Position numbers and translations under genes: made by a program
DNA from: an uncultured Candidatus Saccharibacteria bacterium
Lineage (GTDB): Bacteria > Patescibacteriota > Saccharimonadia > CAILAD01 > BJGX01
Length of the DNA stretch: 64,000 bases
Reading direction: 5' to 3'
Assembly: GCA_964552475.1 (NCBI GenBank)
Contig: CAZKFZ010000002.1
Location: 5,316 to 69,315, forward strand
Shown here: positions 5,432 to 64,000 of the stretch, piece by piece
Layout of the letters: every line of letters begins with the position of its first letter
Numbering within the stretch: the stretch's first letter is position 1
The notes under the pieces: generated by a model
Database searches by the model: none
What the model saw: the letters and a program-made list of their open reading frames with translations, nothing else
What the model was told of the DNA's origin: nothing

Positions 5432-5660
5432 GCAAGTACTTTTCTATCATCATGGCAATAATACCAGGGTTAACTACGGTACGTCGTACTTCGTCTACTA
5501 GTTCAGTGGCTGAGTCGGCACTTTCTTGAACCTTTTCGGCAGCCAGCCGTATCTGCTTGAGTGCCTTAACCATTATCACCAAAAATACTACCGTATATAC
5601 AATTAAAATTATTAGTGCGATCGATGTAACAATTAATAGAGCTATTTCTACGCCATTCAT
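5391..5660 (-). CDS. DUF948-like membrane protein (89 aa)
   Basis: N-terminal TM helix then charged helix. DUF948 is commonly adjacent to YtxH genes. Confidence 0.55.
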   Translation of the reverse strand: MNGVEIALLIVTSIALIILIVYTVVFLVIMVKALKQIRLAAEKVQESADSATELVDEVRRTVVNPGIIAMMIEKYLHGRSKAKKAKSDE

Positions 5661-6280
5661 GATTTTTTGCCTTTCGTAAGTTTATGCTTTATTACTTTTA
5701 TTATATCACTTCTTTTAAGATGCGAAATAGTTATTTCGTCGCGCTCTAAAAGCGTCCACTCGTTTTTATCAACTACTGAGTTGGGTACTATATGTAAGTC
5801 GCCCTTGTTGTCTATAAGTCGAGTCTTCTTGGTGTCCATTTCTACTATATAGCCTTCTTGACGCATATCGCTATCACCCACAATTACTTTATCACCCACT
5901 CTAAAATCGTGATCGTTAGCTAATTGAATACCCGAGACCAAATCTGAAACCGTCTGTGTAAAGCCTTGGGATATACCTATAGAAAGCGCGGCAATAAAAC
6001 CTGTAAGTGCAAAGGCAATGTTTGTGAGCCCAAGTATTTGTAATATTCCAATAGCAAGCAGGGCCCACAATCCACCGCGAGCCAAAATTATCAAGATCTC
6101 TTTTAACCCGAGTGAAATATGAAAGTAGTCAATAAATCTAGACAGCAATCTCATTAATAGTCTAACCACTAAAATACCGATAACTACAAAAACTATACCT
6201 CGTCCAATTCGGGGCAAAGCCTGTACAATGGATTGCCACATTTCATTAAAGCTACTTAACAAATCAGACTCGAACAGCAT
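5657..6280 (-). CDS. small-conductance mechanosensitive channel (MscS family, short form)
   Basis: Three N-terminal TM helices followed by the MscS beta-domain region (DHDFRVGDKVIVGD ... GYIVEMDTKKTRL). Confidence 0.7.
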   Translation of the reverse strand: MLFESDLLSSFNEMWQSIVQALPRIGRGIVFVVIGILVVRLLMRLLSRFIDYFHISLGLKEILIILARGGLWALLAIGILQILGLTNIAFALTGFIAALSIGISQGFTQTVSDLVSGIQLANDHDFRVGDKVIVGDSDMRQEGYIVEMDTKKTRLIDNKGDLHIVPNSVVDKNEWTLLERDEITISHLKRSDIIKVIKHKLTKGKKS

Positions 6281-6312
6281 TACCTATAACTTTCTTGATT
6301 AAGATTACTAAT

Positions 6313-7758
6313 TTAGACAGATTGTTCTTCTAATAATTTAAGCACAAGCTCGTTGGCTTTGCCAGGGTTTGCCTGCCCTTTTGTAGCCTGCATTACTTGC
6401 CCCACAAAGAAGCCTGCTGCTTTGGCATTACCGTTTCGATAGTCAGCCAAAGCATTTGGGTTTTTTGAAATCAAATCGCGCACAATACTCTCTAGTTCTG
6501 TGTTATCGGAAATCTGTACAAGTCCTTGTTGCTCTACAATTTGCTTTGGCCGAGAGCCGTCAATCACATTTGCAAAAATACTCTTGGCGGTCTTAGACGA
6601 TATATCACCTTTTTGGATTAATTCAATAAGCTCAGCCAGATTTTCGCCAGTCAGTTTTGAGCTTTCTTCGCTATTTTCTGAAATCCAAGCCTGGTAGTCG
6701 CCAGTAAGCCAATTGATAATTTTTTTGTCTTTCTCAGGCTTGTTGCCAAGTAGCTTACTTGCCTTAAAAAATATTTTTCCAGTTGTATTTTGACTTACAA
6801 AAATATCTTGAGAATCTACATTAATACCAAGTTCAACAAGGTTTCTTCTTATTTGAATAGGCATTACTAAATCTGTTAAATGCGACTGTATATCTTCTAC
6901 AAATTCTGGCTTTAGTTTGAGTGGTGGGATATCTGGCTCTGGAAAATAGCGGTAATCATGCGCATGTTCTTTCCCGCGTTGGCTAAAAGTTTTACCTTTG
7001 CCATCATCCCAACCACGTGTTTCTTGGTCGACTTTTCCACCCGATTCGATAACCTCAATTTGTCGCTTGATTTCATAAGTTAGAGCGCGCTCAGCATTTC
7101 TAAAAGAATTGAGATTTTTTAGTTCCGTGCGAGTACCAAGCTCATCGTTATTACTTACTGAAATATTTAAATCAAACTTAAAATTACCATGTTGTAAGTC
7201 GCCATGAGTAACTCCAAGGGTGGTGGCGATTGCATAAACCTCTTGCAGGTACCTTTTTGCTTCAATTGGCGAATGCATTTCTGGCTCGCTGACTATTTCA
7301 ATAAGTGGTGTACCAGCTCTATTAAAGTCAACCAAGCTATAGTCTTTACCTACGGGATGGGTGAGTTTTCCGGCATCTTCTTCTAGATGTGCATGGTGAA
7401 TACCAATTTTTCTAAACTCTCCATCTACTAGAATTTCTACATAACCTTTTTGAATGATTGGTTCCTCCATTTGGGTTATTTGATAACCCTTGGGCGAGTC
7501 AGGATAAAAATAGTTTTTTCTATCAAAGCTAGTATTTTCGGCAATTTTGGCGTTTAGGCCCTTGCCTAGCTTTATGGCTAACTCTACCGCACCTTTATTG
7601 GGTACTGGTAAGACACCTGGTAGTGCTAAGCAAACTGGGCAAATATTAGTGTTGGGTTCTGACCCTACACTATGGTTGTCGCACGCACAAAACATTTTAC
7701 TTTTAGTAGCAAGCTGAGTGTGAATTTCTATTCCGATAGTTGGAGTATATTTTGTCAT
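6313..7758 (-). CDS. gatB: Asp-tRNA(Asn)/Glu-tRNA(Gln) amidotransferase subunit B
   Basis: N-terminus TIGIEIHTQL ... MFCACDN ... NICPVCLALPG and C-terminal GatB/YqeY domain. 481 aa. Confidence 0.95.
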   Translation of the reverse strand: MTKYTPTIGIEIHTQLATKSKMFCACDNHSVGSEPNTNICPVCLALPGVLPVPNKGAVELAIKLGKGLNAKIAENTSFDRKNYFYPDSPKGYQITQMEEPIIQKGYVEILVDGEFRKIGIHHAHLEEDAGKLTHPVGKDYSLVDFNRAGTPLIEIVSEPEMHSPIEAKRYLQEVYAIATTLGVTHGDLQHGNFKFDLNISVSNNDELGTRTELKNLNSFRNAERALTYEIKRQIEVIESGGKVDQETRGWDDGKGKTFSQRGKEHAHDYRYFPEPDIPPLKLKPEFVEDIQSHLTDLVMPIQIRRNLVELGINVDSQDIFVSQNTTGKIFFKASKLLGNKPEKDKKIINWLTGDYQAWISENSEESSKLTGENLAELIELIQKGDISSKTAKSIFANVIDGSRPKQIVEQQGLVQISDNTELESIVRDLISKNPNALADYRNGNAKAAGFFVGQVMQATKGQANPGKANELVLKLLEEQSV

Positions 7759-7762
7759 AGAT

Positions 7763-8251
7763 TTAACCTATAGGTACCCCTAGCTCTTCAATAGCCTTGC
7801 CAAGAGTTTCAATGGCATTTTTAACTTGGTTTGGCACAATATCGTGCTCTACCTCGTGAGCTAACTGGTTGCGTAATTTGTGAGCACCCCAAATAGCATT
7901 GATGTTGGTAAACGCTCCACCACCACTTTTTAGCCTGTCGCCCATAGTTTCTCCAGAAAAACCTTGTGAAACCATCACGTAATCTAATAATTTATCTGCC
8001 TCGTAAAGCGCATTTTTAAGCCCACTTGCTCCATTATTTTGCATAGCAACTATCTCGGCCCATTTAGTTTTAACCAAGTCTTTATTGACACTTGCAGTAT
8101 TAGTGTCTTCCGATCCTGACCGGTCTATTTGTTGAGCATCAAAATTACGATTTTTGTTGGGTGATTTATTGGCGCGAGTCTTTAAAAAATAGTAACCAAT
8201 AGCAGTAAAAACAACAACTGCTACGATAACCGATACTAAAGATGAAGTCAT
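7763..8251 (-). CDS. membrane-anchored hypothetical protein inserted between gatA and gatB (162 aa)
   Basis: N-terminal TM helix. C-terminal helical region with an R-x4-H-E-x3-H motif (HKLRNQLAHEVEHD). Start overlaps the gatA stop by 4 nt. Confidence 0.6.
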   Translation of the reverse strand: MTSSLVSVIVAVVVFTAIGYYFLKTRANKSPNKNRNFDAQQIDRSGSEDTNTASVNKDLVKTKWAEIVAMQNNGASGLKNALYEADKLLDYVMVSQGFSGETMGDRLKSGGGAFTNINAIWGAHKLRNQLAHEVEHDIVPNQVKNAIETLGKAIEELGVPIG

Positions 8252-9678
8252 AGTTTAATCTCCTCTAATTTTAAATGCCAACTTGTTTTCGACTGAAACT
8301 CACTCGCCAGAGCTAAGACCTTTTTGTCTGCTTTTTGTTGACCGATTATTTGAATACCCAGAGGCATATTAGTCTCGCTATCTATGCCGGCTGGAATACT
8401 TATAGCTGGTAAGCCGGCAAGATTTGCGGTTACGGTAAGTAGATCGGTCTTGTACATCTCTAACGGATCACTTTTAGCTCCAAACTCAAAGGCCGGCTGG
8501 AAAGTAGTGGGCATCACTATGAGATCGCAGTCTTTAAATATTTTGTCAAACTGTTCACAGACGAGTTGTCGCACCTGCATAGCTTTTTTGTAGTAGGCAT
8601 CATAATAACCAGAAGAAAGTGCATAAGTACCTATTAAGATACGGCGCTTAACTTCATCTCCTAAAAATTCTGCACGGGTTTTAGAATAAAGTTCAGAAGT
8701 ATTTTTCGCGACTTTATTAACCTGGCCATAGCGAATGCCATCGTATCTTTCTAGATTGGAACTAATTTCTGAAGGCACTAAAACATAGTATGCACTCAAA
8801 GCCAAAACGCTATCAACCATCTCTATTTCGCTCGCTTCAATATCTAGAGTGTTGGTCAACTCTTTTACTGTTGTTTGTTTTATGTAGTCCTTTGGGATAC
8901 CAATTCTCATGCTATTTACGGCAGAGTGATCTTCTGACGCATTTAGTGTGCTTAGTGTAGTGGCGTCCATTGGGTCTTGCCCAGAAATAACGTCTAGAAC
9001 AATTTGAGCATCGTCAGCTGACCTAGTAATTGGACCAATACAATCAAAGCTACTTGCCATTGCAATGACACCATATCTACTAACTCTACCATAGGTTGGC
9101 TTTAAGCCTGTTACTCCACAAAAAGCCGCTGGCTCTCGAATAGATCCACCGGTGTCGGTGCCGAGGCTAAAAACACAATAGTCTGCTGCTACTGCTGCAG
9201 CGCTACCACCACTACTACCGCCAGGAACTCTATTGATGTTCCAGGGGTTGGTGGTTTTAGCAAAGCTAGAGTTTTCGGTACTACCGCCGTGGGCAAATTC
9301 ATCTTGGTTGGTTTTGGCAAGTAGAATAGCTCCGGCCTCGTTTAGACTATTAATGACTGTTGCAGAATATGGAGGTATATAGCCTTTAAGTATTTGGCTA
9401 GCTGCAGTAGTCTGTACTCCTTTGGTAGAAAACATGTCTTTAGCTGTATACGGTATGCCTTCGAGCAAACCAATCTCTTCGCCAGCAGCAATCTTGTCGT
9501 CAATCTTTTTGGCTTGTACATTTGCATCGTCGCCACACAACGTAATAACTGCTTTGATCTGCGGCTCATGCTTTTCAATTCTGTCGAGGTAATATTTTAC
9601 GAGATCAACACAACTCACCCTTTTTGTTATTAATAGTTCGTGAGCTTGTCTTATGGATAAAAGCGACAAATTAGTCAT
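8248..9678 (-). CDS. gatA: Glu-tRNA(Gln) amidotransferase subunit A
   Basis: Amidase signature GGSSGGSAAAVAA. 476 aa. Lies between gatC and gatB. Confidence 0.95.
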   Translation of the reverse strand: MTNLSLLSIRQAHELLITKRVSCVDLVKYYLDRIEKHEPQIKAVITLCGDDANVQAKKIDDKIAAGEEIGLLEGIPYTAKDMFSTKGVQTTAASQILKGYIPPYSATVINSLNEAGAILLAKTNQDEFAHGGSTENSSFAKTTNPWNINRVPGGSSGGSAAAVAADYCVFSLGTDTGGSIREPAAFCGVTGLKPTYGRVSRYGVIAMASSFDCIGPITRSADDAQIVLDVISGQDPMDATTLSTLNASEDHSAVNSMRIGIPKDYIKQTTVKELTNTLDIEASEIEMVDSVLALSAYYVLVPSEISSNLERYDGIRYGQVNKVAKNTSELYSKTRAEFLGDEVKRRILIGTYALSSGYYDAYYKKAMQVRQLVCEQFDKIFKDCDLIVMPTTFQPAFEFGAKSDPLEMYKTDLLTVTANLAGLPAISIPAGIDSETNMPLGIQIIGQQKADKKVLALASEFQSKTSWHLKLEEIKL

Positions 9679-16166: not shown

Positions 16167-16252
16167 TGGTGCGCGGGGCGGGACTCGAACCCGCAAGCCC
16201 TAGGGGCAACAGATTTTAAGTCTGTCGTGTATACCAATTCCACCACCCGCGC
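16167..16252 (-). tRNA. tRNA-Leu (anticodon TAA)
   Basis: Cloverleaf read by eye. Acceptor gcgcggg/cccgcgc. Anticodon loop ctTAAaa. Long variable arm (type II). T-arm gcggg-ttcgagt-cccgc. 3' CCA is encoded. Confidence 0.9.
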
Positions 16253-16318
16253 TTAAGTAAATTGTCAGTATATTTTTATTAGTTTATAATAAACCAATAA
16301 ACAAGGAAAGCAAAAACC

Positions 16319-16567
16319 ATGACCGAACCAACACATGACGGCGACCACATTACACAAGGTTCAGATACACTTAATAAAAGTGCAGAACATGAAGATCTTG
16401 TGAGCCAACTTCGTGAAATGCGCGCCAAAAATGACCCCAATAAATCTTTGCGAGCCCAAGCCCTCAAAGAACTTGCCGATAGTGGTGTTCACACTATTTC
16501 TGACCCAAGAGTTATAGAGGCAAAAGAACTAGAGATAGCCCAGCGCAATCAAGCACCCAATAACTAG
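16319..16567 (+). CDS. hypothetical small protein (82 aa)
   Basis: ORF between two tRNA genes. Hydrophilic. No motif. Confidence 0.35.
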   Translation: MTEPTHDGDHITQGSDTLNKSAEHEDLVSQLREMRAKNDPNKSLRAQALKELADSGVHTISDPRVIEAKELEIAQRNQAPNN

Positions 16568-16583
16568 CTTTATAAAAAGTACT

Positions 16584-16656
16584 GGAGGCGCGTACCGGAT
16601 TTGAACCGGTGTACAGGGTTTTGCAGACCCTTGCCTAACCACTCGGCCAACGCGCC
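16584..16656 (-). tRNA. tRNA-Cys (anticodon GCA)
   Basis: Acceptor ggcgcgt/acgcgcc. Anticodon loop ctGCAaa. T-arm ccggttcaaatccgg. CCA is encoded. Confidence 0.9.
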
Positions 16657-16892
16657 TTAAAATTTCTTAAATAACTCACACATTATACCTGTTTTTTAGA
16701 GTAGCTGAAAGGGCTAGAAATCTAGTGTAGATTCTGCTATGATTATTCTCGTTATTCATATTTCTACATATTCTATTCTGCTCTCAACCAAACCAAGCTA
16801 CTTGTAGGTTGGTTTGAAAAGGAGAATTAATACGAAAATGTTAGAATTGATTGTAATTAATCAATTTGAAAATAGGAGTATTAATTGGACGC

Positions 16893-16968
16893 GGCGAGAT
16901 AGCTCAGTTGGTAGAGCAGTGGCTTGAAGAGCCTCGTGTCCTCGGTTCGATTCCGAGTCTCGCCACCA
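16893..16968 (+). tRNA. tRNA-Phe (anticodon GAA)
   Basis: Acceptor ggcgaga/tctcgcc. D-arm gctcagttggtagagc. Anticodon loop ttGAAga. T-arm ctcggttcgattccgag. CCA is encoded. Confidence 0.9.
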
Positions 16969-16969
16969 T

Positions 16970-17046
16970 GCGGGTATAGCTCAGTTGTTTAGAGCGCATC
17001 CTTGCCAAGGATGAGGCCGGGAGTTAGAGTCTCCCTACCCGCACCA
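16970..17046 (+). tRNA. tRNA-Gly (anticodon GCC)
   Basis: Acceptor gcgggta/tacccgc. Anticodon stem catcc/ggatg with loop ttGCCaa. The T-loop sequence ttagagt is slightly unusual. CCA is encoded. 1-nt spacer after tRNA-Phe. Confidence 0.85.
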
Positions 17047-17053
17047 AATACAT

Positions 17054-17130
17054 GGGTGATTAGCTCAGTTGGCTAGAGCGTCTCGTTTACACCGAGGATG
17101 TCGGGGGTTCGAGTCCCTCATCACCCACCA
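17054..17130 (+). tRNA. tRNA-Val (anticodon TAC)
   Basis: Acceptor gggtgat/atcaccc. Anticodon loop ttTACac. T-arm gggggttcgagtccctc. CCA is encoded. Confidence 0.9.
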
Positions 17131-17132
17131 AA

Positions 17133-17161
17133 AAAAGACCTTTTTTAAAGGTCTTTTTTTG
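17133..17161 (+). terminator. rho-independent terminator after the tRNA cluster
   Basis: Hairpin aaagacc-tttttta-aaggtcttt followed by a T-run. Confidence 0.75.
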
Positions 17162-17175
17162 TTACAATTAACCAT

Positions 17176-18021
17176 ATGACAAAAATAGTAGATGGTAAAT
17201 TGCTGGCACAAGAAATTGCAAATCAGCTTATAAGCCAAGTTGACAAGTTAAGGCAATATAAAATCAACCCCAAACTAGCTATTGTTGGTATAGAACCAGA
17301 CACTAGATCTTTGGTGTATATAAATATGAAGATCAAACGCGCCAAAGAAATTGGCATACAAGCCGAATTCATAGACCTGTCTGGCAATAGTAGATCTGAG
17401 TGTATTACAAAAGTGACTGAACTTAGCAAAAACCCCAAAATACACGGAATTGTAATTCAGTTACCTTTGTCTGGATGGTATGATCCGCAAGACCTTATTG
17501 ATTACATAAACCCCGCTAAAGATGTTGATGGGCTTACTAGCACTAGCCAAGACGCCCTAGAAGATGGTCACACTGGCCTTAGGCCAGCTACTCCACTTGC
17601 AGTAATGAGTATATTAAATACATACGATGTTGAGTTAAAAGATAAAACGGTAACGGTTGTGGGGAGAAGTCACTTGGTGGGTACACCACTTAGATACATG
17701 TTAGAAAATGCAGGCGCCAAAGTACTGGTAGCACACAGACAGACTCAAGACTTAAAAAGCCATACCTTAAAATCAGATATTGTAGTAAGTGCTGCCGGGT
17801 CACCAGGGTTAATCACCGGTGACATGGTAAAAAATGATGTTGTGGTTATAGATGTAGGGATAAATGATGTAGACGGCAAGCTGCGTGGAGATATAGATTT
17901 CGATTCTGTCGCCCCAAAAGCTAGTATTATTACCCCTGTACCAGGTGGTGTGGGGCCAATGACCGTAGTTATGCTACTTCAAAATATTGTTCAAGCAATT
18001 AAAATGAAAAACCAGTTATAA
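17176..18021 (+). CDS. folD: bifunctional 5,10-methylene-THF dehydrogenase / methenyl-THF cyclohydrolase
   Basis: 281 aa. N-terminal catalytic domain (KLAIVGIEPDTRSLVYINMKIKRAKEIGI) and Rossmann NAD(P) domain (VTVVGRSHLVGTPL) in the FolD arrangement. Confidence 0.95.
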   Translation: MTKIVDGKLLAQEIANQLISQVDKLRQYKINPKLAIVGIEPDTRSLVYINMKIKRAKEIGIQAEFIDLSGNSRSECITKVTELSKNPKIHGIVIQLPLSGWYDPQDLIDYINPAKDVDGLTSTSQDALEDGHTGLRPATPLAVMSILNTYDVELKDKTVTVVGRSHLVGTPLRYMLENAGAKVLVAHRQTQDLKSHTLKSDIVVSAAGSPGLITGDMVKNDVVVIDVGINDVDGKLRGDIDFDSVAPKASIITPVPGGVGPMTVVMLLQNIVQAIKMKNQL

Positions 18022-18051
18022 ATAATCAGGATCTTAATGATTATTTACAGC

Positions 18052-18138
18052 TGGTGCGGACGAGAGGACTCGAACCTCCACAGCCTTTCGGCCACAAGCC
18101 CCTCAAGCTTGCGTGTCTACCAGTTCCACCACGTCCGC
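18052..18138 (-). tRNA. tRNA-Leu (anticodon GAG)
   Basis: Type II tRNA. Acceptor gcggacg/cgtccgc. Anticodon stem caagc/gcttg with loop ttGAGgg. Long variable arm. CCA is encoded. Confidence 0.9.
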
Positions 18139-21649: not shown

Positions 21650-21736
21650 TGGTGCGGATGAGAGGACTCGAACCTCCACAAGATTGCTCTCACTAGCTCC
21701 TGAAGCTAGCGTGTCTACCAATTCCACCACATCCGC
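21650..21736 (-). tRNA. tRNA-Leu (anticodon CAG)
   Basis: Type II tRNA. Acceptor gcggatg/catccgc. Anticodon stem ctagc/gctag with loop ttCAGga. CCA is encoded. It is a close paralogue of the tRNA-Leu(GAG) gene 3.5 kb away. Confidence 0.9.
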
Positions 21737-60631: not shown

Positions 60632-60697
60632 AATTGGTTTTTTATTTTATCATTATGCTATAATGTGGTTAGAATAAATTAATAAGGAGTCTATATT

Positions 60698-61099
60698 ATG
60701 GCAAGTAAAAATAATGAAGTAACAGGTTGGGCTGGCTGGGCAGCTTTTGCCGGTCTACTAATGGTTTTAGCAGGCTTTTTCCAGGTACTAGTTGGAATAA
60801 GTGCAATTGTTAGAAATACTGTATATTTTGTTGGTCCGTACAACATTCTATCGGTAGATATTGCAAATTGGGGATGGCTACACCTTCTATTGGCAATACT
60901 TTTACTAGGTGCTGGTCTTTCAGTACTAAAAGGTAATGCTTATGGTAGAGTTGTGGGTGTAATCTTGGCTGCAATAAGTGCAGTTGTAAACATGGCCTTT
61001 ATCCCTGCTTACCCCGTATGGTCTATACTAGTAATGGTAGTAGATATTGTAATTATCTACGCTCTAGTAGTACATGGTGGCGAACTAGGCGAAGCCTAA
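60698..61099 (+). CDS. small four-TM membrane protein (133 aa)
   Basis: Good RBS (aaggag) upstream. Followed by a terminator. Confidence 0.6.
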   Translation: MASKNNEVTGWAGWAAFAGLLMVLAGFFQVLVGISAIVRNTVYFVGPYNILSVDIANWGWLHLLLAILLLGAGLSVLKGNAYGRVVGVILAAISAVVNMAFIPAYPVWSILVMVVDIVIIYALVVHGGELGEA

Positions 61100-61123
61100 T
61101 AGCTTACTATATAGAAACTTTAA

Positions 61124-61157
61124 AAATACTCCTTTTTAAGTAAAGGAGTATTTTTTG
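61124..61157 (+). terminator. rho-independent terminator
   Basis: Hairpin aatactccttt-ttaag-taaaggagtatt followed by ttttt. Confidence 0.75.
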
Positions 61158-61160
61158 TAT

Positions 61161-61199
61161 AAAAAAAAGGGGGGTGATAGTCTTTCGACTATCACCCCC
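61161..61199 (-). terminator. perfect 13-bp GC hairpin with minus-strand T-run (terminator-like), left boundary of the GC-rich end segment
   Basis: gggggtgatagtc-tttc-gactatcaccccc preceded on the plus strand by aaaaaaaa. Confidence 0.6.
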
Positions 61200-61839
61200 A
61201 TGTTCTGGGGCGTAGGCCGTTGGGCAACCCTAGAACGGGGTACTACTGAATTGCAAAAATTAGCATAATTTAAGGTGGACCAAACATGTGCTCTACATTC
61301 AGCTAGGCTGAAACTACTAGTAGACCACTACATTGGCTTTGTCGCGGCAGCCACTGGCCACCACCTAGGATTTCTCCACCAAACGAGCTTTGCTTTCTTA
61401 CTGTCCAGGTAAGAAAACTTATGCGTTGCTTGCAGCCGCGCCGCAGGTCGCTAACCTGCATTTATTTACTCACCACTCGGTGGCGAGCTCTTTACACCGT
61501 CCAGCCTGCAATACTGGAGTCAAAACCCTCAAATCAACACGATATTCGATCGGGTTAAATTGAGTATGGTCTTTGCGGCGCCCCATCTTGTCTCTCAGGG
61601 GTGAGAGCTCTCTTAAAAGTATTTTTTCACTTTTTAAGAGAGTCCACTTTGTCAGCTAAATTTTAAAATGTGCCGACTTGGTGGTTATTACTGATATCTT
61701 TTCTAAGGTACAATCCGAGCTCAGTCTTCCCTGGTCCTCTCGGTCGAACCAGCATAGTAGAAGTATTATAGCATAGTAGTACAAGAATTGCAAGGGTTTT
61801 TTATTACTTTTTTTAAGTATTTAGTTTGTAATAAAAATA

Positions 61840-61883
61840 GCCTGAATGGTAAAGGCCCCGCCTCTCATAAGAGAGGCGGGGCC
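61840..61883 (-). terminator. perfect 13-bp GC hairpin, terminator of the 61926..62276 gene
   Basis: ggccccgcctctc-ataa-gagaggcggggcc. On the minus strand it is followed by a T-rich tract. Confidence 0.6.
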
Positions 61884-61925
61884 TGGTGCTACCTTGGTGA
61901 GGTAGTCTTTAATCCTTGCGAGGGA

Positions 61926-62276
61926 TTAGTTGGAGGAGGCTAGTGAGCCTCGCACGTACTTACGGCCACGCCAGCCGAGTGCCTTGCGAGCCAGCTGGAT
62001 GGCAGCGAACGCTTCGGCGTTGGTGTTGGCAACGATGCTGAAGCGATCCTGACCACCGTCACCGGGCTGCTTCCAGCCGGCCTCTGGAGTGAGGTGCTTG
62101 GCCATCTTGGCGGCAGCCTTAGGCGAGCTAGGCTCTACCCGCACCCGCATTCGCTCGATGCCGAGCTCACGGAACCCCACCCGGCCACGTCGACTGGTGT
62201 GGGTCACCTGGTACTCACCGGTACCCTCGGTACCCGCCATGTAGAGCGAGTTGGCCTGCTTGGTACTTGCGGTCAT
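61926..62276 (-). CDS. hypothetical protein (116 aa), GC-rich
   Basis: ORF in the high-GC segment. 4-nt overlap with the upstream phosphatase gene. No motif recognised. Confidence 0.55.
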   Translation of the reverse strand: MTASTKQANSLYMAGTEGTGEYQVTHTSRRGRVGFRELGIERMRVRVEPSSPKAAAKMAKHLTPEAGWKQPGDGGQDRFSIVANTNAEAFAAIQLARKALGWRGRKYVRGSLASSN

Positions 62277-62830
62277 TTTTGACCCTTTCTGTTGTTGGGA
62301 GTTGGCCGCGGGGTGAATTCCTCGCGGTATTTCTGGGGTACTTCTTGGCTGCGCAGAGCAAAGATGCCCTCAACCTGCGCGATTGTCTCAACGGCGTGGC
62401 CACAGTGACGAAGACGTACCGCCAAGACAGGATCTGGTGTATCCTCTTCGCTCTCAAGAAGAGCAATGAGAGATGCCAGAAATGTACCTGTACGACCATG
62501 TGAGGCCGAACAATAAGCCAGCATGGTGTCGCCAGCCACAAGGCGTGGCACCACCAATCTCTCTAGCTTGTATCGCCAATCGCTTGGCACACCACCGAAG
62601 TCAGGCAACTCGAGCTCGGTGAGCTCATCCTGATCATCGTAAAGGTGCTTCTCGTCAATTAGCCTGCCATTGAGAGTGACTATCACGTCAAACTCGTCGA
62701 GGTTGGCCGGAAGGGCATACATTGTCCCCCAAGCTCCTACCTCAAACTCGCCAACTCTTACTAGTCCACCTCTATGTTCTTGGTGTACGCGAGCCACTTC
62801 TGGGCCCGCGCTTGAATGAGCTTCGCTCAT
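62273..62830 (-). CDS. dual-specificity / PTEN-like protein phosphatase (CX5R)
   Basis: P-loop YCSASHGRTG (compare PTEN HCKAGKGRTG). Candidate general-acid Asp in PDFGGVPSD about 30 residues upstream. 185 aa. Confidence 0.75.
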   Translation of the reverse strand: MSEAHSSAGPEVARVHQEHRGGLVRVGEFEVGAWGTMYALPANLDEFDVIVTLNGRLIDEKHLYDDQDELTELELPDFGGVPSDWRYKLERLVVPRLVAGDTMLAYCSASHGRTGTFLASLIALLESEEDTPDPVLAVRLRHCGHAVETIAQVEGIFALRSQEVPQKYREEFTPRPTPNNRKGQK

Positions 62831-62867
62831 TTAGGCTCCTTACCTAAGTCGCGGCAAAAGCAGGGGC

Positions 62868-63974
62868 TCACCAGAGCCCCTGCTTTACACCTTTGTCGAA
62901 TAGGGCCTGTACCCGAGGGTCAAAGCCATAATCTTTCAGTCCATTATGCAGACTGGTTACTCCGGTAACGTTTTTCTTGATCTCGAGCTGTTGGTCGATT
63001 CCTCGACCACCATAGCCCCTAGACGTTTCATGAACAATGCGGTGCTTGTTGAACAGCACCCCACCGTTATGACGAAGATCCCACACGTGATCAACAAACG
63101 CAACCAGTGGCAACTCTTTGCTTAGGTACCGTGCCAATGTTCTGGCAATATCGGCCCAAAGCTTACCACCCATTGACCCCCACCACTTGCCAAACTCAAA
63201 CACATCGCCGATAAGCGACGCGTACTGAGCTTGTTCAAGGAGGGAGTGGCCTTTAAGGCCGGTACTCCTATTCCACATCTCATCGCGTTGATTCGACATA
63301 GTGAAATTAAAGGAGGTACGTAGCTTCTGCATGGCTGCATCGGCTTTGGGCGTTTTGTACGGATTGTCGTAATACCGCACCTCGCCAGTAATAGCGATTG
63401 CCAGGTAAGTAGCTAATAGCTCGGCCACGTTTGCCTGAACGTCTCGCTGCAACTTAAACGCTTCTGCCTCAAGCGAGCTACCTTTAGCCGCGCGGGCCAT
63501 GGCATCGCTTAGGTAGAAGTCATTAAGAAGTTGGTTGGCGGTATGCGATTCACTCATCCGCTCAAATGCCAGATGTGGTTCTGGTGTGGCAAACAGAGAA
63601 TGCCAGCGCAAGAAGATATTGGCCTCCTTGGTGAGATCCACCGACGTAGTCGGCAACTCGCCTCGGTAAACCAATCCGCTAGTGCCGTTGACCGACACCA
63701 CCTCTCCAGGCTCTAGGCTACTCAGATCGAACTGAGCACCCACTACAGCCGGCAGACCTATTCCACGGGCCACTACAGCAGCATGACAAGTAGCTCCACC
63801 AACACTGGTTACGACGGCCGAAGCCGCCAATAGTCCTGGTAGATCATCGGGGTTGGTATCTGGACGAACCAGAATTGCCTTGGTACCCGATGCAGCAATC
63901 GCTTGTGCCCCGTTAGAGGTATGAGCAACCACTCCTGTCACGCAACCAGGTGAAGCTGGCAAACCCTCAGCCAA
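62868..63974 (-). CDS. PEP-utilising-enzyme mobile (phosphohistidine swivel) domain protein with unrecognised C-terminal domain; 5' end probably beyond the window
   Basis: VGGATCHAAVVARGIGLPAVVG is the conserved phospho-His swivel motif. The following roughly 250 aa match no domain I recognise. The reading frame stays open to the window edge. Confidence 0.7.
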   Translation of the reverse strand: MAEGLPASPGCVTGVVAHTSNGAQAIAASGTKAILVRPDTNPDDLPGLLAASAVVTSVGGATCHAAVVARGIGLPAVVGAQFDLSSLEPGEVVSVNGTSGLVYRGELPTTSVDLTKEANIFLRWHSLFATPEPHLAFERMSESHTANQLLNDFYLSDAMARAAKGSSLEAEAFKLQRDVQANVAELLATYLAIAITGEVRYYDNPYKTPKADAAMQKLRTSFNFTMSNQRDEMWNRSTGLKGHSLLEQAQYASLIGDVFEFGKWWGSMGGKLWADIARTLARYLSKELPLVAFVDHVWDLRHNGGVLFNKHRIVHETSRGYGGRGIDQQLEIKKNVTGVTSLHNGLKDYGFDPRVQALFDKGVKQGLW

Positions 63975-64000
63975 CAGTCGCCCCTCGGCCTTGGCTTGCG

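Follow-up and report, generated by a model that had tools for sequence, protein, structure and literature searches.

Large, richly structured bacterial RNAs are rare, and to our knowledge nearly all of the known ones are ribozymes, ribonucleoprotein (RNP) scaffolds or sophisticated sensors. Leaders and riboswitches are recognised by a constant location in the 5′ untranslated region and an expression platform that overlaps a terminator or a ribosome-binding site (RBS); CsrB-type sponges carry many GGA-loop hairpins that are bound by a CsrA-family dimer; in ToxI-like RNAs, short repeats of ~36 nucleotides (nt) follow one another immediately ahead of the gene for an endoribonuclease toxin; and tmRNA is marked by tRNA-like acceptor and T-arm ends and a tag-peptide reading frame. 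Y RNA/YrlA is thought to work with the proteins of its neighbouring operon. Dikinases of the pyruvate, phosphate dikinase (PPDK) family with swapped C-terminal domains phosphorylate varied substrates, such as rifampicin and α-glucan, and we know of no associated RNA in the glucan-water dikinase/SEX4-laforin or rifampicin phosphotransferase systems. OLE, which like the RNA described here is ~600 nt long, works in an RNP (PMC9723947), and the rsr-rtcBA RNA-repair operon, beside which YrlA lies, has been described (PMC7790460). The subject of this report is an RNA gene, with its promoter, at 61161–61793 of a 64 000-nt stretch of DNA from an uncultured Candidatus Saccharibacteria bacterium, analysed as a whole and called the window below. 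Comparative analysis shows a conserved, strand-specific and richly structured RNA that appears to be independently transcribed and whose family is absent from Rfam, and shows it to be genetically linked to a three-gene module, with which it moves. As judged from sequence comparison, it is a new RNA family, tied to an uncharacterised cassette of a dikinase, a phosphatase and a small protein named S116 in Saccharibacteria and other Patescibacteria. That the ~600-nt RNA gene stands alone as the fourth part of an acquired, GC-rich module of ~4 kb, and that the RNA acts as a partner of the module proteins, is a reading to which we give about an even chance.

The RNA is encoded on the minus strand, and its main parts were located as follows (window coordinates).

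61765..61793, minus strand: RNA gene promoter (found by consensus scan, 10 of 12 positions matching, TG present)
61161..61758, minus strand: predicted primary transcript, ~600 nt (from the promoter and terminator positions)
61161..61199, minus strand: intrinsic terminator of the RNA, a 13-bp stem with a GAAA loop, then C and U8 (terminator scan)
61326..61517, minus strand: 192-nt eight-helix core unit (H1–H8) common to the whole family (matches of model R2)
61331..61380, minus strand: hallmark motif within the core (models R1 and R3)

The promoter is composed of a −35 box TTGCAA (61793..61788), a 17-nt spacer and an extended −10 element TGcTATAAT, the hexamer of which lies at 61770..61765. A transcript from ~61758 to 61161 is predicted because of the positions of promoter and terminator on this strand, the 5′ end being placed from the −10 box and the 3′ end within the U8 tract. 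Folding favoured the same strand, with z-scores of the minimum free energy against shuffled sequence of −7.8 for the minus and −5.2 for the plus strand.

Searching with the flanking AI-2E transporter retrieved metagenome-assembled genomes of Candidatus Saccharibacteria, and one relative among them, L005 (94% identity in the AI-2E protein), carries the RNA with 84% nucleotide identity over ~650 nt. It keeps the promoter hexamers in identical form and has also retained the terminators of the RNA and of the preceding operon. A third close copy, L008, likewise keeps promoter, RNA and terminator, and the −35 and −10 hexamers are the same in all three copies despite diverged flanks. The sequence-only reading, in which this stretch had been singled out before any database search, had asked for structure prediction with covariation analysis on relatives; RNAalifold gave 8 compensatory pairs with two sequences and 15 with three. 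They include the terminator stem, which covaries in L005 and L008 (U-A to C-G, C-G to U-A), and the hairpin GCAGG/CCUGC reads GUAGA/UCUAC in L005. Insertions and deletions between the close copies measure 1–4 nt and do not come in triplets. Only the window lineage has the 5′ 240 nt and the 3′ 165 nt; in distant loci nhmmer, even with iteration, recovered the core alone, and covariance models were needed.

The 5′ domain specific to this lineage contains one further candidate structure.

61581..61607, minus strand: candidate H-type pseudoknot (read from the sequence)

Here the hairpin CUCUCA-CCCC-UGAGAG presents a CCCC loop that could pair with GGGG 7 nt downstream; in L005 the loop is CUCC and the downstream segment GGAG. 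As this amounts to a single compensatory change, the pseudoknot is weakly supported.

The stretch had been noted as lacking any six-frame open reading frame (ORF) of at least 60 amino acids (aa) between 61200 and 61853. This holds, the longest ORF there being 57 aa; at its full extent the ORF-free stretch covers 61100–61925 and is, with 826 nt, the longest of the window. The next-longest, of 608 and 257 nt, are tRNA loci and are explained by the tRNA genes that occupy them; the seven tRNA genes of the window (three Leu, Cys, Phe, Gly and Val) lie at 16167–18138 and 21650–21736. Both perfect 13-bp hairpins that had been described at the ends of the stretch are also present, GGGGGTGATAGTC/GACTATCACCCCC at 61170–61199 and GGCCCCGCCTCTC/GAGAGGCGGGGCC at 61854–61883. 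In all, the window holds seven distinct perfect hairpins of at least 12 bp, three of them within 61122–61884, versus none in each of 20 shuffles. The two do not bracket one element, as had been supposed, and are not a pair, because they are minus-strand intrinsic terminators of two separate, successive transcription units. The flanking signals are therefore listed apart from the RNA.

61854..61883, minus strand: terminator hairpin of the upstream three-gene operon, outside the RNA (position; kept in L005)
61127..61152, plus strand: terminator of the convergent DUF7144 gene, marking the host-side edge of the island (sequence; perfect 13–14-bp hairpin, then a T-run)

The first of these lies 43 nt past the stop codon of the gene for the 116-aa protein and upstream of the RNA promoter, and thus ends the preceding operon. 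The convergent gene itself, at 60698–61099, was assigned to DUF7144 by its Pfam match. A contig in the Logan collection, L001 (DRR774218; 1063 bp), is identical to window positions 60697–61759; one of its ends falls 1 nt ahead of the DUF7144 start codon and the other 1 nt away from where transcription of the RNA is predicted to start. The latter end might reflect a break in the assembly where the island edge varies between strains, or it might derive from a transcript.

The simplest explanations of such a stretch, a decayed pseudogene or a standard RNA that had escaped annotation (tmRNA, RNase P RNA, signal recognition particle (SRP) RNA or 6S RNA), would account for the absence of ORFs and for the position beside a foreign island, which is all that speaks for them in general. 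Scanning the whole window with Rfam 15 (4227 models) at gathering scores gave the seven tRNAs and nothing else, so that the region matches no known family. Lowering the threshold to E ≤10 for 61000–62000 added weak matches to unrelated small RNAs, all far under their gathering scores, and the best of them fall on terminators. RsaE, for instance (34.7 bits; cut-off 79), arises solely from 61122–61195, where the terminators of the convergent DUF7144 and RNA genes stand back to back, and is instructive as a terminator-driven false lead. RNase P, SRP and 6S RNA had no match at gathering score in the window or at E ≤10 in 61000–62000, in keeping with the by-eye impression in the sequence-only reading that tmRNA, RNase P and SRP RNA consensus motifs did not fit. 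For tmRNA (RF00023 and the permuted forms) a faint by-eye likeness can be found, since the minus strand reads CUGGUUCGAC, reminiscent of a tmRNA 5′ end, but ARAGORN predicted seven tRNAs and no tmRNA in the window, Rfam gave no tmRNA match at E ≤10, and the window and L005 have entirely different sequences in the putative tag region. The string ggatttctccacca, once taken for a tRNA-like 3′ end, was misread: it belongs to the non-transcribed strand, neither ARAGORN nor Rfam places a tRNA or tmRNA here, and its complement, UGGUGGAGAAAUCC, contributes to two helices of the conserved core, 6 and 7. OLE, ROOL, GOLLD, raiA, HEARO and all other Rfam 15 families were likewise without a covariance-model match in the window, in L009 and in 14 further loci, where only tRNAs and terminator-driven chance matches were obtained. 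A pseudogene is contradicted by the short ORFs of the gene-free stretch, which have no Pfam match, by the non-triplet indels and by the paired compensatory substitutions in covarying helices. Searches of the phage and plasmid collections with blastn in distant mode revealed no DNA similarity to the region, exact-pattern scans of IMG/VR with two conserved RNA blocks found none, and full-text literature searches returned no description of this RNA or of the cassette. The probability left to a pseudogene or a standard RNA is negligible. A structured non-coding RNA, by contrast, is strongly supported by the kept promoter and terminator, by covariation and by a family of homologues.

This family was defined with three covariance models. 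R1 is a 50-nt model of the hallmark motif, R3 a rebuilt version, and R2 (192 nt, eight helices) combines the three close copies with a structure derived by hand. The core recurs at ~18 distinct metagenomic loci. Full-length R2 units were found in L094 (two), L017, L009 (three), L068, L064, L100 and L023, and, with filters off, also in L055 and L012; with R1, 0.64 Mb of sequence yielded 26 matches, every one on the cassette strand, and loci added later yielded five more; R3 returned the set of R1 plus one marginal upstream match, with no stray matches. Across ~0.65 Mb, R1 and R3 give 25–26 matches, none of them on the opposite strand. The window scores 242 bits with R2 and 55–58 bits with R1 and R3, values that are circular because the window is in the seed alignments; it is the distant loci that support the family independently. 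These models give an incomplete count of the distant members.

In the core alignment (A12), 93.9% of cells are paired versus 36–45% in slid controls, 42 of 49 pairs show changes on both sides, and 0 of 500 shuffles reach any of these measures, the pairing counts being somewhat inflated because the alignment was fitted to the model structure. The hallmark motif comprises an outer helix UUGGU/GCCAA, a mini-hairpin GGA-GAAA-UCC, an invariant UAG, a 9-bp hairpin GUGGUGGCC/GGCUGCCGC and an invariant GAC(A)A. The 9-bp hairpin shows double changes at seven of its nine pairs and is 96% paired, with no equally good case among 500 shuffles; it carries a conserved tandem U·G/G·U, and since these pairs would become A·C mismatches if the opposite strand were read, the minus strand is fixed as the one transcribed. 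Unpaired letters are conserved as well: ACUGC(U/A) in the H1 loop, an A-rich linker, (U)UAGCGA in the H3 loop and GCNGCAGGCAA in the H4 loop, while H8 is flanked by the invariant UAG before it and GAC(A)A after it. The window RNA shows both of the features by which the proposed family is defined, the core motifs and a cassette adjacent on the same strand. About half of the units have GGA in the H5 loop (A12 columns 188–218; window ~61408–61414), where the window reads CUGGACA; GGA may recall CsrA-binding sites, although it is common and the likeness perhaps meaningless.

Upstream of the RNA gene on the same strand lie the three genes of the cassette.

62868..64000, minus strand: 3′ part of a PPDK-like dikinase that runs off the window (PPDK_N and swivel domains)
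62273..62830, minus strand: CX5R cysteine phosphatase, dual-specificity phosphatase (DSP)/protein tyrosine phosphatase (PTP)-like, 185 aa (alignment A5, 61 homologues)
61926..62276, minus strand: S116, a 116-aa protein of a new family (alignment A15, 27 orthologues)

The G+C fraction of the window climbs from ~0.37–0.40 to 0.54–0.56 beyond 62000. In L005 a block of high G+C (0.48–0.59) extends over ~5500–9500 between flanks of 0.35–0.38 and holds exactly the RNA and the three same-strand genes. On account of this contrast, 50–58% for the module (window 62000–64000; L005 5500–9500) versus 36–38% for the flanks and 36–40% for the genome, the module is regarded as a horizontally acquired island. 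It is present in some close relatives and absent from others; L002–L004 (~70% identity) keep the AI-2E and DUF7144 genes without the island and without the RNA. The association with an adjacent foreign island that had been noticed earlier was thus correct and even understated, as the RNA itself belongs to the island.

About 95 cassette loci were collected through gene-context retrieval and a scan of metagenomes, and in most of them crude gene maps gave the order dikinase, phosphatase, S116. The dikinase, 725 aa long in L005, consists of a PPDK_N ATP-grasp domain, a PEP-utilisers phospho-histidine swivel domain and a C-terminus of ~250 aa without assigned domain, here called PPDKc, which is sometimes a separate ORF. 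The best NCBIfam model of the protein is PRK05878 ("pyruvate, phosphate dikinase", 534 positions). PPDKc is, according to its predicted structure, a new all-alpha fold. Exhaustive HMMER searching gave 718 representative homologues of it where a word-indexed protein search had returned none, and negatives of the latter method are therefore not taken as absence. The phosphatase has the signature CSASHGR, with D77 and C107-x3-HGR113-TG invariant in the 61 aligned sequences; 175 homologues were found in a large protein collection. Its Pfam matches, PTP-SAK (the DSP-PTPase domain of the "Swiss Army Knife protein") and Tc-R-P, are weak. S116 is arginine-rich, measures 114–116 aa and is encoded by the third cassette gene in most loci; it is characterised by the motifs MAGTEGTGEY, GRVGxR, RVRVEP, GWKQP and RFS and by invariant R44, R46, R78 and S80 (27 loci). 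A perfect 13-bp GC-rich hairpin, AAAGCAGGGGCTC/GAGCCCCTGCTTT at 62857–62886, straddles the dikinase stop codon at the 37-nt gap between the dikinase and phosphatase genes and may be an intra-operon processing or attenuation site.

All core matches lie on the cassette strand and adjoin the cassette, either downstream of its last gene or immediately ahead of its first; the genes beyond the cassette differ among loci. The RNA follows S116 in ~11 of 18 loci (window, L005, L008, L017, L068, L025, L064, L018, L094, L100 and L009), the core of these downstream-type copies being situated 290–560 nt past the S116 stop codon. Tandem units ~405 nt apart occur downstream of the cassette, three in L009 (7084–8100) and two in L094 (3868–4466). 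In L009 an internal terminator (7727–7766) is followed by a promoter-like site, and separate promoter-like and terminator-like signals were seen in L009 as well as in L064, L068, L055 and L018. Distant cassettes have large gene-free gaps in which motifs shared with the window RNA can be recognised by eye.

Placement bears directly on the main rival explanation, a riboswitch-like or protein-responsive cis-regulatory leader whose core would be an aptamer and whose downstream copies would be orphaned or trans-acting derivatives; a mixture of leader and partner roles is also conceivable. A leader would fit the copies directly before the first cassette gene, seen in about six lineages (L012, L023, L029, L030/31, L034, the second unit of L055 and perhaps L016), in which the core ends 20–60 nt before the RBS and start codon of that gene. 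In L029 and L034 the outer helix has a 3′ strand, GGUCCUCC, that resembles an anti-Shine-Dalgarno sequence, and the size of the core and its pattern of conservation, variable helices with invariant junction letters, recall large riboswitch aptamers. The window copy, however, lies behind the operon terminator, has a promoter and a terminator to itself and is opposed by a convergent gene, so that the regulatory-leader option raised by the sequence-only reading does not suit this copy, whereas it survives for those directly upstream of the cassette. The majority position past the last gene, the differing genes downstream of the RNA and the arrays of two or three units, which are unusual for a leader, also count against it. 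A leader function for the family as a whole is therefore considered possible but unlikely. With its placement on either side on the same strand, its separate promoters and its tandem units, the RNA looks more like the partner of a protein system than like a leader.

The enzymes of the cassette have homologues in phages. PPDKc matched four unnamed viral models (Foldseek probability 1.0) and phrog_20946, and tblastn placed it in 41 phage records. In Vibrio phage V-YDF132 (L105, 2803–7498) the genes encode, in order, a dCTP deaminase, a PPDK, a 158-aa protein with a CsrA domain (Pfam, 31.6 bits), a tyrosine phosphatase, a PPDKc-like protein, a second DSP phosphatase and a DNA polymerase, the CsrA-domain gene thus lying between those for dikinase and phosphatase. 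The triad of Stenotrophomonas phage DLP3 (L106, 2383–7793) is found next to the genes for DNA polymerase I and thymidylate synthase. An hhalign comparison matches the phage phosphatase to the P-loop region of the cassette family (probability 71%), and the window phosphatase matches phrog_17568, whose category in PHROG is DNA, RNA and nucleotide metabolism. No RNA core was found in the phage loci with the family models, and the small phage proteins showed no homology to S116. DLP3 DNA resists 15 restriction enzymes (PMC7326821), and because of this resistance and the DNA-metabolism genes nearby the phage triad may belong to a nucleic-acid modification pathway.

These neighbours also give some weight to the idea that the RNA is an enzyme substrate, a hydroxyl of which would be phosphorylated by the dikinase through PPDKc and the phosphate removed by the cysteine phosphatase. 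Such a cycle would resemble that of starch, with glucan-water dikinase and the DSP phosphatase SEX4 as the enzymes, and the NCBIfam matches place the cassette dikinase among PPDK-family enzymes whose swapped C-termini serve diverse substrates; the phage triad beside dCTP deaminase, thymidylate synthase and DNA polymerase, the restriction resistance of DLP3 and the nucleotide-metabolism and weak PTP-SAK matches of the window phosphatase point the same way. Against this, the PPDKc fold had no nucleic-acid-enzyme neighbour in the structure search, the phage loci are without the RNA, and S116, with its invariant Ser80, offers a candidate acceptor that is just as good. We regard the substrate role as an attractive but improbable variant.

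Returning to the partner reading, we infer that the RNA would be bound by proteins of the module, the likeliest contact being the junction formed by UAG, the tandem-GU hairpin and GAC, and the likeliest binder S116. S116 is favoured because of the placement pattern and of the phage CsrA domain, which suggests that an RNA-binding component belongs to the logic of the module. The setting of the phage triad, among genes for nucleotide metabolism and DNA polymerase in phages with restriction-resistant DNA, also favours an RNA partner. Dikinase and phosphatase would then set the phosphorylation state of S116, at the invariant Ser80, or of a nucleic acid; copies just 5′ of the operon could serve autoregulation of the operon, and stand-alone or tandem copies could act in trans as scaffold, decoy or substrate. 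Several results weigh against this reading. Besides the upstream-type copies and the partial inflation of the A12 pairing counts, about half of the cassettes with adequate flanks gave no R1, R2 or R3 match, so that the RNA is either non-obligatory or has diverged past detection. S116 has no recognisable RNA-binding fold: its profile found no relative in Pfam or PDB, the AlphaFold2 model from the single sequence was poor (pLDDT 58), and hhalign gave no match to the phage CsrA-like protein.

Mobility raises the further alternative that the RNA is part of a mobile defence or toxin-antitoxin (TA)-like module, in which it could serve, for example, as decoy or antitoxin in the manner of type III TA systems. 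The foreign G+C content of the island, its presence or absence among close relatives, the tandem RNA units adjoining genes on the same strand and the homologous genes in phages would agree with this, but no PADLOC model matched any of the three cassette proteins, no nuclease or other toxin domain was found in them, and the units are richly structured and ~400 nt long rather than short repeats. A ToxI-like RNA in particular was rejected on the same grounds, the units lying mostly downstream. Defence or TA function appears highly improbable.

A bolder form of the partner reading can be framed, in which members of the candidate phyla radiation (CPR) possess a four-part system, evolutionarily tied to the phage triad, whose dikinase and cysteine phosphatase would reversibly phosphorylate the modular RNA or the S116 bound to it. 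We consider this rather unlikely; if true, the system would do for a nucleic acid or RNP what the dikinase/phosphatase cycle does for starch, and enzymes acting on the RNA or on its binding protein would constitute a new type of phospho-controlled RNP. Even otherwise, a new RNA family is gained for Rfam and for CPR genome annotation. An RNA and three uncharacterised proteins travel as a mobile island in ultra-small symbionts with little genome room to spare, and the RNA offers a handle on a new dikinase-fused fold, on a widespread orphan phosphatase family and on a phage triad among DNA-metabolism genes.

Among known systems, the RNA is most usefully compared with OLE, ROOL, GOLLD, the raiA motif and HEARO. 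It is like them in its length of hundreds of nt, its many covarying helices, its invariant junction letters, its (here predicted) independent transcription, its typical neighbour genes and a function not evident from sequence. It differs from all of them in lacking any match even at E ≤10, in its phylum, Patescibacteria, in the new association with genes for a dikinase, a phosphatase and S116, and in a unit that can be repeated in tandem. Cobalamin, lysine and glmS leaders also have a conserved core of ~190 nt with variable helices, and some copies of the present family lie just upstream of an RBS as they do; most copies, however, are not upstream of a conserved gene and have their own predicted promoter and terminator.

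With CsrB/RsmZ and CsrA there is in common a separate RNA gene made of repeated structured units, GGA in the H5 loop of about half of these units, and a true CsrA-domain protein in the phage module, whereas the units of the window RNA have eight helices and ~190–400 nt, not short GGA hairpins, and S116 is not detectably CsrA-like. Y RNA/YrlA resembles it as a structured non-coding RNA encoded on the same strand beside phosphate-chemistry enzymes, but the window cassette has no Ro, RtcB or RtcA, and the two RNAs differ in size and show no likeness in sequence or structure. On the protein side, glucan-water dikinase with SEX4-laforin, and rifampicin phosphotransferase, share PPDK_N and the swivel histidine, a substituted C-terminal domain and a DSP-type phosphatase. 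The cassette departs from them by its unrelated all-alpha C-terminal domain, the absence of carbohydrate-binding modules and the associated RNA; these systems provide a model for how the cassette proteins may work.

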